Below are positions 17,259-25,028 of a DNA stretch of 64,000 nt, piece after piece. This DNA comes from Albugo candida. Taxonomy: Eukaryota. The stretch spans positions 806,001 through 870,000 of the forward strand of contig JBDOQK010000003.1 of the NCBI GenBank assembly GCA_040437565.1, written 5' to 3'. The stretch's first letter is position 1, and each line of letters opens with the position of its first letter. Below the pieces are notes generated by a model, which made no database searches, was not told the DNA's origin, and worked only from the letters and a program-made list of their open reading frames with translations. The position numbers and the translations under genes are program-made.

Positions 17259-17371
17259 ACTGTTGCAATCATATAAACTATAGAAGGCTACTGTAACGAA
17301 TCTTGATCTATCCTACTTTCATGTACCACACAATAGTAAACATCTTCTACGACCACTCCCAGTTTCTTTTG

Positions 17372-20300
17372 ATGGATCATCACTCACGATTCCCAACTTC
17401 TTCCGCGCCTTCGACGGCGTCTTTCGAGGACTACAGTGCCATCGACACGTCTTTTTTACAAACGCAACCTTCTCAAACGCTTCAATTTGACGAACCGTAC
17501 GCTACCCCATCTCGGTCGTATGAATTTATTGAATCTGTTGCCGATTCTTCGCTTCCCAACCAGATGAAAAGTCTCAAATTTGAAGAAGCAGTTGAAGAAG
17601 AGGATGAAAATGATGGTCAGAACCATTATGATGCAGTACTTCCAAAAGAACTCCCTGCCCACGCGTGTGCGTACTGCGGTCTTCATGATCCTGCGTCGGT
17701 TGTCAAGTGTGTTGCGACCGACAAATGGTTTTGTAATTCCCGTGGAAATACTTCTGGCTCGCACATAATCCAACATTTGGTGCGGTCGAAGAATAAAGAA
17801 GTCGCTTTACATCCGGATTCTCCGTTAGGTGAAACAGTTCTGGAATGTTACAATTGCGGATGTCGTAATGTATTTCTGCTTGGTTTTATTCCCGCCAAAC
17901 AAGATTCCGTTGTGGTACTACTGTGTCGAGATCCGTGTTTGCAGATGAACGCGTTGAAAGATATGAGCTGGGATATGTCACAATGGCTCCCACTTATTGA
18001 AGATCGTAGTTTTCTGTCGTGGCTGGTCAAAATTCCGTCGGAATATGAGCAATTGAGAGCAAGGCAGATAAGTGCAAATCAGATTGCAAAATTGGAAGAA
18101 TTGTGGCGGGAAAACCCTCTGGCTACATTGGAAGATGTGGATCGTCCAGGTGTGGATGACGAGGTTGCGCCCGTTCTTGAACGATACGACGATGGATATC
18201 ACTATCAGAATATCTTTGCGCCGCTTGTCAAAATGGAATCGGACTATGACCGAAAAATGAAAGAAGCGCAGACGCAAGATAACGTACACGTTCGTTGGGA
18301 TCTTGGACTGAACAAAAAGAGGAATGCGATTTTCAGCTGTAATCGACCAGATTCTGAAATCAGACTGGTTCCAGGTGACGAAATTCGTTTGCGTCTGGGA
18401 CCTAGCTCGATTCTGCTGTATGGTGGAGAATGGGAGGGTTCAGGGCATGTGCTTCGCATTGAAGAGTCAGAAGTGACAATGGAGATGCGAAACAATGTTG
18501 TCCCAGTCGAGATAACAGATGGATTTCTAGTTGATTTCGTGTGGAAAGCGACCTCATTTGATCGCATGCAAGCAGCTATGAAGACATTTGCGGTTGACGA
18601 TACTTCACTGACTGGCTACCTGTATCACAAGATATTGGGACACGATGTCGATGTACAAGCTCTTCGAGTTCCCCGATCAATTGACACAAAGCTATTGGCT
18701 CCGGGTCTTCCGGAATTGAATCCGCCACAAATGGAAGCCGTCAGAGGGGTCTTATCACAGCCATTGAGCTTGATACAGGGACCTCCGGGTACTGGAAAAA
18801 CAGTGACTTCTGCATCAATCGTTTATCACATGTCACGGCAAAATATGGGTCAAGTCCTTGTTACTGCTCCTAGTAACATTGCGGTTGATCATCTAACCGC
18901 CAAGATTAGTGCGATCGGTCTGAAGGTTGTCCGATTGGCAGCCAAAAGCCGCGAGGCAGTGTCTTGCTCGGTCGAACATCTGTCCCTTCACACAATGGTC
19001 AAATTGCTTACATCGCCTGACAAAGCCGAGCTTCGTAAGTTGATGCAACTTAAGACCGATCAAGGCGAACTGTCTTCACAAGACGAGAAAAAGTTCAAGT
19101 CTCTCAAGCGTCAAGCAGAGCGGGAAATTCTGCAGGCTGCAGATGTAATATGCACCACTTGTGTGGGTGCTGGCGATCCACGCTTGTCAAACTTTAGATT
19201 TCGCCAAGTTTTGATCGATGAAGCTACCCAAGCCACGGAACCCGAATGTTTGATTCCTATCGTGCAAGGTGCAAAGCACGTCGTTATGGTAGGTGATCAT
19301 TGTCAACTTGGTCCCGTGGTCATGAATAAACGAGCGGCCAGCGCCGGCCTAAATCAATCGCTTTTCGATCGTCTGTTGAAATTGGATCATCGTCCTTTCC
19401 GACTCCGCGTACAGTATCGTATGCATCCCTGCTTGTCTGAATTCCCTTCAAACACATTTTACGAAGGAGAGCTACAAAATGGAGTCTCTTCGACTGAGCG
19501 GCAGTTGAAAAATCTGGATTTTCCATGGCCAAATCCCAACAAGCCAACGTTCTTCTATATCTGTTTGGGAGCGGAAGAAATCAGCTCGTCTGGAACAAGT
19601 TATCTCAATCGCACTGAAGCAAGCAATGTGGAAAAAATCGTGACTGCATTCCTAAAATGCGGAGTCCTACCGGCTCAAATTGGTGTCATCACTCCGTATG
19701 AAGGACAGCGGGCGTACGTTGTTAATTACATGCAACGTAATGGTTCCATGCGCGCTCAACTATACAAAGATGTCGAAGTCGCAAGTGTGGACTCGTTTCA
19801 AGGGCGTGAGAAGGATTTGATCATTCTGTCTTGTGTACGCTCTAATGAGAACCAAGGTATCGGTTTTTTGAGCGATCGAAGACGGCTGAATGTCGCGCTG
19901 ACTCGGGCGAAATATGGAGTTATCATTCTGGGCAATCCGCGCGTATTGGCAAAGCAAGAGCTGTGGAATCGATTACTGAATCACTACCGTGATCATCAAC
20001 TGGTTGTTGAAGGTCCGTTATCCAATCTTCAGCCCTCTTTCATGCAATTTCCCAAACCAAAGCAGAGTCGCTCAGGCAATGATGGAAATCGATACTCTCG
20101 TCCCCGAAATGGTCCATTACCTCCTCTGGACTCACGGTTTGATCCACGATACGATCACATGTCCATCCCGTCTAATGGAATGGGTGTGATGGGTGAACTT
20201 GGTCCTGAGTATGGAATGCCGCCGCCAGGTCCCATGGGATATGCACAGCATCACCCATCAAACTCGCACTCTCTTAATCATCAGCTACCTCACCAGCGTG

Positions 20301-20551
20301 TTCCTCGCGGGAATATGAATGCCAACAGTGGCGGATTTGGTCCTTTGACCCAAGATAACACTTCTCTGCACCCTCTTGGCACAGGGTTGGATGGACCCTT
20401 CACTCAAGCCGCTCAAACGCAACCGTTCAGTCAGTTGTCAGTGGGCGATAAATTTGGACTATCACAAGAAACGTTGTCGTACGATCAGAGTTTCCAAACG
20501 CAAAATATGGCAATGTCTCAAGATTTGCGCCACAGCCACGACTTTTATTAA
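17372..20551 (+). CDS. UPF1: Regulator of nonsense transcripts 1 (UPF1 RNA helicase), single exon
   Basis: CH zinc domain ([29 protein letters not shown]), [39 protein letters not shown]. First ATG is at 17372. Confidence 0.98.
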
Positions 20552-20988: not shown

Positions 20989-23900
20989 TCAAAATGCCAT
21001 TCTAAAGGTAGTCGGTGGAATGATATTGGCCACTTGACACCTCTCCGACTTTGAATAACGCTTTTTGATCACGGTGAGATTATTGGATGGTGACGAAGAA
21101 TACAACACTTTCAATTCAGCCATACATTCCCGTAAATCTGACCACTTGTACATTGTGGCATCAGCCAGTTCTTTCGTCTGTTTGGAAAATACGTTAGATT
21201 TAGTAACTTTTCGAATGACAAATAAATACCATTGGGAATCCTTCAATTGTGTACAAAGCCAGCGATAAGCAGCAAGTTGCGACCACAGAAGGATAATACT
21301 TGAGCATTTGATATTCCTGCAATGCTAATTCCAACAAATAGTGCGCCAACATTGACGTTTTCATACTCACCGGAGGGATCATTCGCTCGTAAACATTGAG
21401 GAAGTCCAGTGCTACAGAGAATAGCTTAGTAAACGAGAAGGAATCGAAGCTGGGCAAACTGTACCAGTTGGTACTGCCAGCGTGAAATTGAGTGCGTTTA
21501 ACAATTTCTCCTCCATCTTCAACACCTCGGTGGATGTGTACACATTATCTGCACACATGGCCAAATCCTCGACTCCAATATATGACACATCTTCACATTT
21601 TGATGCTACGTGAAGACATGTAGCGCCTAAGAGCTGGAATCGGGTCTTCTTGACCATGACGATATTGAGAAAGCGATCAGTATAATTGACGGCCAGAAAG
21701 GCTGTGCGTAGACACATCTCAAAGACATCAACGACTGAAGGTATAGAACTTAGCAACGATATACCATCCACGAAACTATCACTCGTACCTTCGATCAGCC
21801 AGTCCACCAGCATTGATCGATGTGTCGGTCTTAAAGTTTTCTGACGACTGCACATCCCAACGAGTTAGTCAATATCAAGTTTTATACGGAGCAGAGCTTA
21901 AATCACCTGAGATAGTCAAACCGTCGCCAAATGTCCGTTTCTGTTTGCCTTAGATACGCATGGAATAAGATGACATGCTCTGGAGGTATTCCGGGTTTTC
22001 CATCGGTCAAGCAGTACTGTATATCTCTTAGCGATATGGAAGGGATCAAAGACTGCGGAAACGCGTCATGCTGGGCAAAGTACGGATGCCGAAGAGCGTC
22101 CTCCGCAGTTATACGCTGCTCGGGGTTGTATATAAGCATCTTAGACAAAAGGTCGAGACCAAGATCAGATACTCCAGAAAATAATCGTCTTAACGGTCTT
22201 CGTTTCCAGTTGGGAAATGTGAAGTGATAATTTGGCAAAGACGTGAATCCAGGCCAGGTGCCAGAGTTTGGAGTCGACAACTTACTAAATATCTGGAAAA
22301 GCTGATCAATCTCTGATATCCCCGTGAAAAATGGTTTGCCCAGAATCATCTCAGCGAATATGCAGCCAACAGACCAGATGTCCACAGCTGATGAGTATCC
22401 TCTAACACCCATCAATATCTCTGGCGGCCTGTACCAAAGCGTCACAACCTCCATTGTGTACTCTCGTTTGGGTATGCCTGTAGCACGAACAAGAGCAAAA
22501 TCTGATACTTGCAGCACGGCATCGTCTATAAATTCACATTAGAGCTGCATAGATACATTCTGTTTTAGTTGTTATACCTAGCGAGATCGGATCTGTTGTG
22601 TCTATCAAAAGATGCTTTGGCTTGAGATTTCGATGCAGTACTCCCCTTCTGTGACAATAAGCTATTGCGTCCAGTATCTGATGCAAAAGTCGACGAATCT
22701 ACGGTGATACATCATAAGAATAGGGCATGACTTTTGCATGTGACTGTAATGGATCGTACCACTTTCTCGGAGAGCACACGACCACCATTTGGATCTCCAG
22801 TCGGATTGATAATACCATGCAACGTTCGATCCACGTACGGGAAGAACACATAAAGTTCATCCTTTGCAAGACTGATCATCTCAATAGATGCGATATTACT
22901 ATGCTGAAAGCCCCGGAGAACAGCCAATTCTCGTAGCATATAATAAGGTACGCCTTCTCCCTAATACATCATACTTGCTGAGTAAAGACGAGCATTAGAA
23001 GTTTGTGATTAAGTACCTTTGGAAATACGCGAGCTTTCTTCATCGCTAATATTTTGCCTGTCGAACGCTGATAGCATTTGAAACAAGTTCCTTCCGTTCC
23101 TTTGTTTTTCATCCCGAGATTCTGAAAGTTTAGCCAATTCACACTTCCGTCACTATTCAGACTAGGAAGATCTCGACACAGCGATTGACTGCTCGTGATG
23201 GTTCGCCACTTTCTTGAAACCTGACCCAGAATGGGAAGATTCTCTGCGGACACCAGAAATGAAAAGACATGAAGGATCATATCGGACGGCTGCATGTCGA
23301 TATGTTCCTTGTTCTTCAAAACTCCTCCAGCGGGGAATTGCTGCAGGCTTGACTCTGAGAATGCCTCACTATCGTCTTCGTCATGTGCTGCTGGTGAAGC
23401 GATTAAAATCTCACGTCGAACCAATTTATTGGCACGATGCTCCACAGCTCGGTCAGATGGATCAATGGAGAATCCTTCTTCACCAGGTTCTTGATTGTGC
23501 ACGTGTTCACGCGCGTACGCCACATAGGAGGTCTCCGAGCTGTCCTCTTTACTTCTTGTAAGCTTCCTTTTACCCAAAGCTACAACAAAATCGTCAGGAA
23601 TCTATGAATGACTTGGCCAAGTACCCACCGGCAGTAGAGCCATTTGAGCTGCCATATCTCCTTTCCTGGCCTTGTATGTCGCTAATGCTTCTCGAACGTG
23701 GAGTTCCTCCTAGCTCCACCAATAAAGTGTCGGTCGAATTAGGCACAAATGTTGATGCTTCCCAGTTCGCTTGTCCATGATCGAGTGCCCTAATACCATT
23801 GGGATTCGAAGACTTGGCCTGTCGCCTTTTTTTGTACGGAGTTGTTTCGACGACGTTTAACAGATCTCGAACGCTGTTTCCTCTCTGTGGCTCGGACGCG

Positions 23901-24019
23901 CGCGAATTTTCTTCCGTTTGTACATTGGCATTACTGAGTACATTTGCTGTTGAGTCACGCTGATCCATTTCATCGGAATCGACTGAAACCCGCTCTCTTT
24001 CTGCGGAATTTCCTTCCAT
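20989..24019 (-). CDS. Multi-exon fusion protein: F-box + CDK-like (probable pseudo)kinase + cyclin A/B-type boxes
   Basis: F-box-like PSDMILHVFSFL..LGQVSRKWR; kinase AMKK, GVPYYMLRE, HRNLKPKH, DFA, YTMEVVTLWYRPPE; cyclin RSMLVDWLIE, FQLLGATCLHVASKCED, LAHYLLELAL. GT-AG introns join the pieces in frame at the junctions checked (e.g. 21848-21906). Confidence 0.85.
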
Positions 24020-24160: not shown

Positions 24161-25028
24161 AAGGACACGATGACGTGATCACTGCTAACACTGATGTAAA
24201 TGCGTTGTAGATGCTTCTCCCTTCTAGTCTAACACGATGTCTGAATGCTGTCGACAGTCTTGTAATATGATTTTGGGGTTTTCTTCTCTCCACAAGCCTC
24301 TCCCTTATACTTATACGTGTAATATACAGTTCTATACGGTAATCTGATTCCAGTTACCGTCTCTGATTCTAGCGATGCAATCGAAAGGAAAGCATTTGCG
24401 CTGTCGCATTTGCGGAGGTTTTGGGCTCGGTTTGGTTCGTAACGTTGAGAAAATCTGTACACATTGCGCTCGGTGATGCACACTTGCGTATTTTTCATAT
24501 AAAATCCATTGACGCACTGACTATAGAGAAACAAAAGCATTTTTNNNNNNNNNNNNNNNNNNNNNNNNNNNNNNNNNNNNNNNNNNNNNNNNNNNNNNNN
24601 NNNNNNNNNNNNNNNNNNNNNNNNNNNNNNNNNNNNNNNNNNNNAAGGACACGATGACGTGATCACTGCTAACACTGATGTAAATGCGTTGTAGATGCTT
24701 CTCCCTTCTAGTCTAACACGATGTCTGAATGCTGTCGACAGTCTTGTAATATGATTTTGGGGTTTTCTTCTCTCCACAAGCCTCTCCCTTATACTTATAC
24801 GTGTAATATACAGTTCTATACGGTAATCTGATTCCAGTTACCGTCTCTGATTCTAGCGATGCAATCGAAAGGAAAGCATTTGCGCTGTCGCATTTGCGGA
24901 GGTTTTGGGCTCGGTTTGGTTCGTAACGTTGAGAAAATCTGTACACATTGCGCTCGGTGATGCACACTTGCGTATTTTTCATATAAAATCCATTGACGCA
25001 CTGACTATAGAGAAACAAAAGCATTTTT
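24161..25028. repeat. Apparent 384-bp direct duplication across a 100-N gap (24161-24544 = 24645-25028); assembly overlap artefact
   Basis: Identical sequence on both sides of the N run at 24545-24644, offset 484. Confidence 0.85.

Follow-up and report, generated by a model that had tools for sequence, protein, structure and literature searches.

Within a 64,000-nucleotide (nt) stretch of the Albugo candida genome (GenBank assembly GCA_040437565.1, contig JBDOQK010000003.1, positions 806,001 to 870,000 of the forward strand; hereafter the window), we analysed a minus-strand gene at 24019–20989 that encodes an F-box, a cyclin-dependent kinase (CDK)-like kinase and a full cyclin as a single polypeptide. 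Joining its nine exons across eight GT-AG introns gives an open frame of 2595 nt, running from an ATG at 24019–24017 to a TGA at 20991–20989 and coding for 864 amino acids (aa). The introns measure 49, 56, 61, 52, 59, 54, 53 and 52 nt in gene order. From the N-terminus, the protein consists of a disordered region of ~220 aa, the F-box, the CDK-like kinase, a linker of ~40 aa, and the two cyclin boxes, Cyclin_N and Cyclin_C. The kinase keeps the features by which a CDK is held by a cyclin and carries replacements at the residues with which it would catalyse phosphotransfer.

A spliced gene for one F-box, kinase and cyclin polypeptide

We compared the exon join with contigs that cover the locus. 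Contigs of runs X1 and X3, both from one study, lack all eight introns at exactly the predicted borders, and because the precise removal of eight GT-AG introns gives them the appearance of cDNA, we infer that X1 and X3 are RNA. A near-identical DNA contig (X7), perhaps from the source DNA, retains the introns unspliced, and run X5 contributes short, low-depth, unspliced pieces only. At the junction of kinase and cyclin, the X1 and X3 contigs join 21847 to 21907, and removal of intron 5 yields ...RRFDYL-S-RQKTLRP... in the protein. In P0002, the full-length Albugo laibachii orthologue (864 aa, 92% identical to the window protein), on which all structure work below was done, the Cyclin_N match begins at aa 616 (profile positions 5–126), within the kinase exon and upstream of intron 5. 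The cyclin domain itself therefore straddles the kinase–cyclin junction, and a separate cyclin begun at the ATG near 21853 would lose its first helix. Thus, a real spliced gene encodes the F-box, the CDK-like kinase and the full cyclin in one chain.

An earlier sequence-only reading of the window had proposed such a fusion, and on gene structure it holds up well. Its coordinates and frame are right, as the open exon join confirms; the Pfam scan that it called for matches F-box, Pkinase, Cyclin_N and Cyclin_C, and these matches and the spliced contigs bear out its statement that GT-AG introns join an F-box, a CDK fold and both cyclin boxes in one frame. The F-box-like segment that it placed at ~23190–23290 coincides with Pfam matches at 23289–23173, and its 59-nt junction intron at 21848–21906 is exact, whereas the second intron, given as 22960–23015, was off by one and lies at 22961–23016. 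It had named a transcript ending at the TGA at 21903 as the finding that would speak against a fusion; the X1 and X3 contigs instead skip the interval that contains this codon. The lack of a separate cyclin gene, for whose promoter it had seen no room, is supported by the same contigs, which cross the junction, and by the position of the Cyclin_N start.

The public A. candida gene model differs at this junction. The kinase exon is 100% identical to an 859-aa "unnamed protein product" of A. candida (P0001), which UniRef names "Cyclin-F", and ending exon 5 at 21922 rather than at 21907 reproduces P0001 with two substitutions only. The public annotation thereby takes as intron the 15 nt that encode FDYLS. 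In a 39-row alignment P0001 alone is fully gapped in these columns; all five residues are present in 36 of the 39 rows, and the brown-algal rows P0046 and P0047 each miss one. Because relatives keep FDYLS and the contigs use 21907, this donor is the better one, and the public model is probably mis-called, with its donor 15 nt too far upstream. In practical terms, the public gene model for A. candida appears wrong at one splice donor.

Table 1. Features of the fusion gene in the window (positions of the whole stretch; aa numbering of the 864-aa protein).
Feature	Position	Strand	Content and evidence
Whole coding region	20989..24019	-	9 exons, 864 aa + stop; 8 of 8 junctions in spliced contigs
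Exon 1, 391 nt	23629..24019	-	Start codon and most of the disordered N-terminal region
Exon 2, 563 nt	23017..23579	-	End of N-terminal region, F-box, start of kinase N-lobe
Exon 3, 201 nt	22760..22960	-	PSTAIRE-equivalent helix (PYYMLRE), remaining N-lobe
Exon 4, 121 nt	22578..22698	-	Catalytic loop
Exon 5, 619 nt	21907..22525	-	DFA motif, T-loop, C-lobe, linker, first helix of the cyclin domain
Exon 6, 59 nt	21789..21847	-	HRSMLVDWLIE, MRAIL-type groove helix
Exon 7, 270 nt	21465..21734	-	Cyclin box 1
Exon 8, 182 nt	21230..21411	-	Exon join, spliced contigs
Exon 9, 189 nt	20989..21177	-	Ends in TGA; exon join, spliced contigs
Intron 5, 59 nt, GT-AG, kinase–cyclin junction	21848..21906	-	Skipped in X1 and X3 contigs; in-frame TGA 21905–21903 inside
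FDYLS segment, 15 nt	21907..21921	-	Taken as intron by the public annotation; contigs use the 21907 donor
F-box, model aa 228–266	23173..23289	-	Pfam F-box-like and F-box, PDB sequence matches, three helices
CDK-like pseudokinase domain (by its residues), aa 290–575	22077..23103	-	Interrupted by introns 2–4; Pkinase, likeness to CDK1/2/3
H-R-N codons cat-cga-aat, aa 407–409	22627..22635	-	H-R-D in active kinases; N in 35 of 35 relatives
D-F-A codons gat-ttt-gct, aa 434–436	22494..22502	-	D-F-G in active kinases; D-F-A in 35 of 35 relatives
Kinase–cyclin linker, aa 576–615	21957..22076	-	27% mean identity to oomycete orthologues; residues 582–603 at pLDDT <50
Cyclin_N domain, aa 616–737	21478..21956	-	Spans introns 5 and 6; 118.6 bits on P0002, 99.7 on window piece
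Cyclin_C domain, aa 740–856	21016..21471	-	Spans introns 7 and 8; 79.7 bits on P0002, 41.8 and 32.5 on window pieces

On its downstream side the gene is convergent with a single open frame of 1084 aa (17297–20551, plus strand) for a UPF1-type RNA helicase, which matches UPF1_Zn_bind (255.8 bits), AAA_11, AAA_12 and the 1B domain; in both X1 and X3 the spliced contigs run from one gene into the other. On the upstream side, a run of 100 N at 24546–24645 stands between two copies of a direct repeat that are identical over at least 300 nt (24161–24460 and 24645–24944). The repeat lies ~140 nt upstream of the start codon, in a 5′ region covered by the presumed RNA contigs, and has the look of overlapping ends of two contigs with a gap set between them, not of a true duplication.

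Kinase, cyclin and F-box

The kinase is closest to the cell-cycle CDKs. Pkinase matches the exon pieces of the window at 12.3, 18.1, 34.8 and 89.7 bits and P0002 at 175.4 bits (Pfam), and the best PDB sequence matches are CDK3, CDK2 and CDK1, at ~260–266 bits. In the alignment to CDK3, hrdlkpqn of the catalytic loop becomes hrnlkpkh, dfglar becomes dfalvr, and gegtyg of the glycine-rich loop becomes nkgteg, while three elements do not change: the valkk Lys, the Arg-Glu pair of pstaire (pyymlre in this protein) and the ythev Thr. Among the 35 relatives aligned, the strings H-R-N-L-K-P-K-H, D-F-A-L and G-T-E-G are invariant, with the catalytic-loop Asn replaced by His in every one. Equally invariant are K311 (the beta-3 Lys), E329 (the alpha-C Glu) and D434 (the Asp of DFG); 34 of the 35 have the T-loop Thr. 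The glycine-rich loop keeps two of its three glycines, the first being Asn in 24 of the 35 relatives, and its Tyr is Glu in all of them. We take this position to be the Tyr of inhibitory phosphorylation in CDKs; the fixed Glu lies within aa 289–294 (window ~23088–23105, minus strand).

We next ran local profiles built from the family alignment over 248 proteins. Among 95 that were F-box-positive, 79 read HRN and none HRD, with the motif unmatched in 16; among 116 kinase-only proteins, 101 read HRD and five HRN; and 36 kinase–cyclin proteins without an F-box divided into eight HRD, nine HRN and 19 unmatched. The window protein resembles a CDK in having CDK1/2/3 as nearest neighbours by sequence and fold, a cyclin-binding helix and a T-loop Thr, and it departs from an active CDK in the HRD Asp, the catalytic-loop Asn, the DFG motif and the incomplete glycine-rich loop. 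Mean identity to oomycete orthologues, across oomycete orders, is 84% for the kinase and 87% for Cyclin_N. Judged by these residues, the kinase is a pseudokinase, and since HRN, His and DFA are fixed across relatives, the absence of both the catalytic Asp and the catalytic-loop Asn is a fixed family trait. The "full CDK fold" of the sequence-only reading is correct as to the fold, which is CDK2/CDK3-like, although the loss of the catalytic Asp had been missed.

The cyclin part has both boxes, as cell-cycle-type cyclins do. Cyclin box 1 matches cyclin D1 (58.8 bits), A2 (50.9) and B1 (49.7) best in the PDB, and the best 60 of 87 PDB matches (E≤10) are filled by cyclins D1, A2, B1, D3, viral cyclin and E1. 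Seven residues are invariant in the 35 relatives: R642 and E651 (both in the HRSMLVDWLIE helix), D671, Q685, L686, K697 and E726. The groove reads HRSML and conserves R, L, W, E, Q and L, the pattern of an MRAIL-type groove. K697 and E726 are presumably the counterparts of the Lys and Glu with which cyclin A holds its CDK, going by cyclin A numbering.

To see how the domains sit together, we modelled P0002 with AlphaFold2 on a 35-row alignment. The model has a mean predicted local distance difference test (pLDDT) of 73.5 and a predicted template modelling score (pTM) of 0.72, and pLDDT falls below 50 only at residues 1–219, the counterpart of the disordered N-terminal region, and 582–603 in the linker. 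A pTM this high with 245 of 864 residues disordered suggests that the ordered domains are placed confidently against each other in the model. All of the 50 best PDB fold matches of the model are CDK2 or CDK3 chains (TMt 0.89–0.94); 46 titles name cyclin A, cyclin E or Spy1 as partner and the remaining four name none, so the kinase appears to be modelled in its partner-bound shape.

A complex prediction for the kinase (278–585) and cyclin (608–864) of P0002 scored 0.74 against 0.01 for the best control, a mark attained by 51 of 78 solved complexes and by two of 108 mismatched pairs. Agreement between the runs is at least 89% of contacts, and the partner has a pLDDT of at least 87. Residues 315–335, which hold the pyymlre helix, and 347–352 contact cyclin residues 609–616, 693–706 and 723–738, with K697 and E726 at the centre of the interface; among these contacts, helix 319–335 meets cyclin residues 693–698 and 723–738. 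Kinase and cyclin of the one chain are thus predicted to dock on each other by the canonical CDK–cyclin interface, the intramolecular docking that the sequence-only reading had singled out for structure prediction; the interface is intact in sequence, and its formation is a prediction. Between the two partners, the linker is among the least conserved parts of the protein (27% mean identity to oomycete orthologues), and its length varies greatly outside the oomycetes, variability of the kind expected of a tether.

The F-box precedes the kinase directly. On the window exon piece it scores 31.0 bits for F-box-like (cut-off 24.3) and 23.4 bits for F-box (cut-off 20.5), and on P0002 33.6 and 22.8 bits (Pfam). 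All nine of its PDB sequence matches at E≤10 are F-box proteins, weak as these matches are (E 0.08–0.96), with the F-box of Skp2, FBXL5 and FBXW7 as the best. In the AlphaFold2 model it forms helices at 229–239, 242–248 and 253–259 (pLDDT 79–86), continuing as an ordered stretch to the N-lobe; blocks 260–290, which link it to the kinase, reach pLDDT 86–91, and the kinase and cyclin folds follow in the C-terminal place that F-box proteins give to a protein-binding module. At 57%, its mean identity to orthologues from oomycetes exceeds that of the N-terminus (26%) and of the linker (27%). Of 24 family members scanned (Pfam, E≤0.5), 21 have an F-box or F-box-like match immediately before the kinase, six of them above the Pfam cut-off. 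The Phytophthora infestans models P0039 and P0040 begin in what is left of an F-box, their aa 3–19 matching profile positions 26–42 below cut-off, which suggests N-terminally truncated models of proteins that in reality have an F-box. Given its placement just before the kinase across the family, the F-box looks like an old and regular family part, not an Albugo peculiarity.

Upstream of the F-box, within exon 2, a short block at aa ~165–190 of the N-terminal region is common to oomycete orthologues (consensus IDPS.R.VEHR..K.VRREI.IASP) and may be a short linear motif.

Distribution, earlier description and other kinase–cyclin fusions

A search with the kinase exon outlines the family. Among the 120 best longer proteins found, 70 carry Pkinase and Cyclin_N, and 39 of these 70 also carry F-box-like. 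The oomycete sources among these 120 are Albugo, Phytophthora, Peronospora, Hyaloperonospora, Bremia, Plasmopara, Peronosclerospora, Pythium, Globisporangium, Lagenidium, Aphanomyces, Saprolegnia, Achlya and Thraustotheca, so that all main orders are represented. The family also occurs in ochrophyte algae (Discosporangium, Choristocarpus, Chrysoparadoxa, Phaeothamnion and Tribonema) and in a labyrinthulomycete (Hondaea), which answers the call of the sequence-only reading for an architecture search across stramenopiles. Records of the fused form in oomycetes and other lineages include transcriptome-derived ones. Among the matches found there is one A. candida and one A. laibachii protein only; P. 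infestans has four. The family is present in major crop-pathogen lineages and, within the searches made, absent as such from their plant hosts.

A second search, with the region from F-box to N-lobe, gave 62 matches at E≤0.001 among 125 candidates and added a dinoflagellate record, Durusdinium, with kinase and cyclin. A chlorophyte cluster with Pkinase and F-box, a lead from Atlas, was not borne out by name in this search. One record labelled Batrachochytrium salamandrivorans, a chytrid (P0279), has an F-box-like match, a kinase and the two cyclin boxes, with 36% identity over the searched region; it reflects either a wider distribution or a contaminant contig.

Part of this family is already in the literature. 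In its accessible text, the study of Judelson & Ah-Fong (2010, PMC3019232) describes four P. infestans CDKs with C-terminal Cyclin_N and Cyclin_C, a combination undescribed until then, and confirms the structure by reverse-transcription PCR (RT-PCR). All four have the catalytic Asp of subdomain VIb replaced by Asn, and related genes with the same change are reported there from other oomycetes, two ciliates and Theileria. These CDKs with integral cyclin domains belong to the same family as the window gene, sharing the order of kinase, Cyclin_N and Cyclin_C, the single transcript and the Asp-to-Asn change; P. infestans P0039 and P0040 are 58–60% identical to the window's kinase exon. The sequence-only reading was thus correct to caution that kinome surveys might already have noted the fusion. 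The term "F-box" has no occurrence in the accessible text of that paper (PMC3019232). Database names do reveal the F-box, as "cyclin-dependent kinase with F-box domain" (Achlya, Thraustotheca) and, through UniRef, as "Cyclin-F". We found no paper describing F-box, kinase and cyclin together, no other paper on a natural CDK–cyclin fusion and no functional study of the three-domain protein, in full-text searches that covered few subscription journals. The kinase–cyclin fusion and its dead catalytic site have therefore been known since 2010, and public databases already contain the three-domain protein.

Kinase and cyclin are also joined outside this family. Seven metagenome proteins without the family F-box have the kinase first (P0141, P0151, P0162, P0167, P0168, P0170 and P0244) and three have the cyclin first (P0159, P0210 and P0213). 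At least seven of these ten keep HRD, and seven to eight of the ten group apart from the HRN family (P0159 does not; P0141 and P0168 are outside the tree). The tree, a FastTree of 96 kinase domains in which the two largest groups were thinned to one row in three and the others kept whole, is unrooted, carries local supports and serves as a rough guide; in it, rows with HRN and F-box lie on one side of a branch with support 92, and the HRD-retaining kinase–cyclin and cyclin–kinase metagenome proteins form a separate cluster with support 97 among ordinary CDKs. No relatives of the HRD-type fusion P0167 were confirmed in viral contigs among 598 pattern matches. Giant-virus clusters with Pkinase and Cyclin_N do occur in Atlas, and "cyclin-dependent kinases" of 476–640 aa from Pithovirus, Orpheovirus and a Marseillevirus-like virus have predicted structures that align with the P0002 model over ~570–630 columns, with TMt up to 0.82 (BFVD); one giant-virus entry (BFVD/Atlas) is named "Cyclin-domain fused to serine-threonine kinase". 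Single-chain kinase–cyclin proteins thus probably arose more than once.

A candidate ubiquitin-ligase receptor and comparable systems

We give an even chance to the following reading: the protein would be a substrate receptor of a Skp1–cullin–F-box (SCF) ubiquitin ligase, with a dead CDK, docked on its own cyclin, in the role that the occluding domain has in cyclin F. As in CDK2 bound to cyclin A, the PYYMLRE helix would pack on the cyclin of the same chain, at the Lys/Glu face, to form a closed, catalytically inert CDK–cyclin body tethered to the F-box. The F-box would bind Skp1 and place this body in the ligase. The MRAIL-type groove, and perhaps surfaces of the dead CDK, would then recruit proteins that dock on CDK–cyclin pairs, such as RxL-motif substrates and CDK inhibitors, and these would be ubiquitylated rather than phosphorylated. 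If true, this would be a ligase that reads the CDK docking code and responds with ubiquitin in place of phosphate, a natural CDK–cyclin pair reused purely for recognition, and a second independent route to the cyclin F design. Slightly short of even, and so more tentatively, we extend the proposal to the whole family, from oomycetes, ochrophytes and the labyrinthulomycete to the kinase–cyclin relative in a dinoflagellate, as SCF receptors with a dead CDK–cyclin substrate module that reached the cyclin F design independently. The sequence-only reading had left a choice between a convergent cyclin-F-like SCF receptor with its own CDK scaffold and a self-contained cell-cycle module. What it said of the architecture, the junction intron and the want of a separate cyclin gene stands. 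The receptor, as a proposal, agrees with all the observations, and the self-contained module, taken as an active kinase that activates itself, is disfavoured by HRN, His and DFA in 35 of 35 relatives.

Several points weigh against the SCF-receptor proposal and the evidence beneath it. The RNA nature of X1 and X3 is a guess and is not on record, both come from one study, and their contigs are unable to show one full-length molecule or rare isoforms. With 31 and 23 bits, the F-box has modest scores; of the 24 relatives scanned, 15 fall below the cut-off and three (P0066, P0067 and P0071) give no F-box match at E≤0.5. The first residue of the groove is His, not Met. The complex prediction was made on the A. 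laibachii orthologue and without an alignment, and because the interface is the textbook CDK–cyclin one, its pass may be an echo of solved CDK–cyclin complexes. Finally, the kinase is invariant, or almost so, at the Lys, the Glu and the Asp of DFG, at two loop glycines out of three and at the T-loop Thr; with nucleotide-binding residues thus retained, it may bind ATP, or may have a weak or unusual activity.

A pseudokinase with conserved cyclin surfaces would fit a role in binding alone equally well. The inert body could be a decoy or scaffold without any ligase role, titrating CDK inhibitors, Cks, the CDK-activating kinase (CAK) or RxL proteins away from active CDKs. The F-box would then serve only for turnover of the protein itself, for a Skp1 contact in a non-SCF setting, or to cap the N-lobe structurally. 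The sub-threshold F-boxes of most relatives lean this way, as does the suggestion, in the accessible text of the 2010 paper (PMC3019232), that the cyclin domain acts in the protein's own stability. Yet the F-box keeps its place in 21 of 24 relatives and is far better conserved than the disordered parts flanking it, and its PDB sequence matches are all bona fide SCF F-boxes. We consider a decoy unlikely, at perhaps one chance in four.

The retained nucleotide-binding residues bear on a different proposal, that of a self-activating single-chain kinase whose fused cyclin switches it on, which would still phosphorylate substrates, by an atypical mechanism, and whose F-box times its destruction. 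The kinase is modelled in the cyclin-bound conformation, and kinase–cyclin fusions that retain HRD exist elsewhere. Those fusions, however, form their own cluster in the quick tree, and in the family itself none of the 35 relatives has the catalytic Asp or the catalytic-loop Asn, and DFG has become DFA, which makes this an improbable account. We give just as little credence to a fused cyclin that works in trans on a separate active CDK, with the pseudo-CDK regulating access as a lid that can be removed or as a competitor. A CDK-binding face that keeps its Lys and Glu and a long, disordered linker of variable length would allow such an arrangement, but the confidently predicted intramolecular interface uses the same face, and a tethered partner should gain a large advantage in local concentration. 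That an annotation artefact has wrongly joined a kinase ending at the TGA at 21903–21905 to a cyclin from the ATG near 21853 is scarcely credible, for although the unspliced kinase frame does end at that TGA with an ATG 50 nt downstream, the contigs skip exactly 21848–21906, Cyclin_N starts upstream of intron 5, and the fused form recurs across oomycetes and other lineages, with RT-PCR in Phytophthora in the accessible text of the 2010 paper (PMC3019232).

Returning to the SCF-receptor proposal, we compared the protein with known single-chain and multi-chain systems. The giant-virus proteins of Pithovirus, Orpheovirus, Marseillevirus-like viruses and Moumouvirus are also single chains with kinase and cyclin folds alike to those of the window protein; they are 15–25% identical to it, and an F-box is not listed for them. 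Engineered cyclin–CDK fusions from work on a minimal cell cycle in yeast reportedly fold and dock although covalently linked. They are artificial and active, with the cyclin first and no F-box, whereas the window protein is natural and has the kinase first.

A bound CDK–cyclin pair is part of a recruiting platform in SCF-Skp2, which together with Cks1, CDK2 and cyclin A recognises p27. The F-box of the window protein is closest to that of Skp2, and the Skp2 and cyclin A2 chains of PDB entry 7b5l are among the sequence matches of its F-box and cyclin box. SCF-Skp2 assembles separate proteins around an active CDK2, whereas the window protein is one chain whose kinase is, by its residues, inert.

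A parallel in layout is animal cyclin F (FBXO1), a substrate receptor of SCF. As described in the accessible text of a 2025 paper (PMC12232547), cyclin F consists of an F-box, a CDK-occluding domain of 10 helices and a cyclin box; the middle domain covers the face that in cyclin A binds CDK2 and fixes the orientation, RxL docks through MRYIL on the cyclin box, and outside cyclin F no homologue of the occluding domain is reported. The window protein has the same order of F-box, a domain predicted to lie on the CDK face of the cyclin, and a cyclin box with an MRAIL-type groove. A fused ancestor shared with cyclin F was considered and rejected: the cyclin box is not close to that of cyclin F, which is not among the best 60 of its 87 PDB matches (E≤10), and homologues of the occluding domain are reported only in cyclin F. 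These matches, with D1, A2 and B1 nearest, support the "convergent" of the sequence-only reading. Where cyclin F has the helical CDK-occluding domain, the window protein has a CDK-like kinase fold, and where cyclin F continues into a C-terminal PEST region, the window protein ends just after Cyclin_C. Hence, the likeness to cyclin F is one of design, not of orthology.

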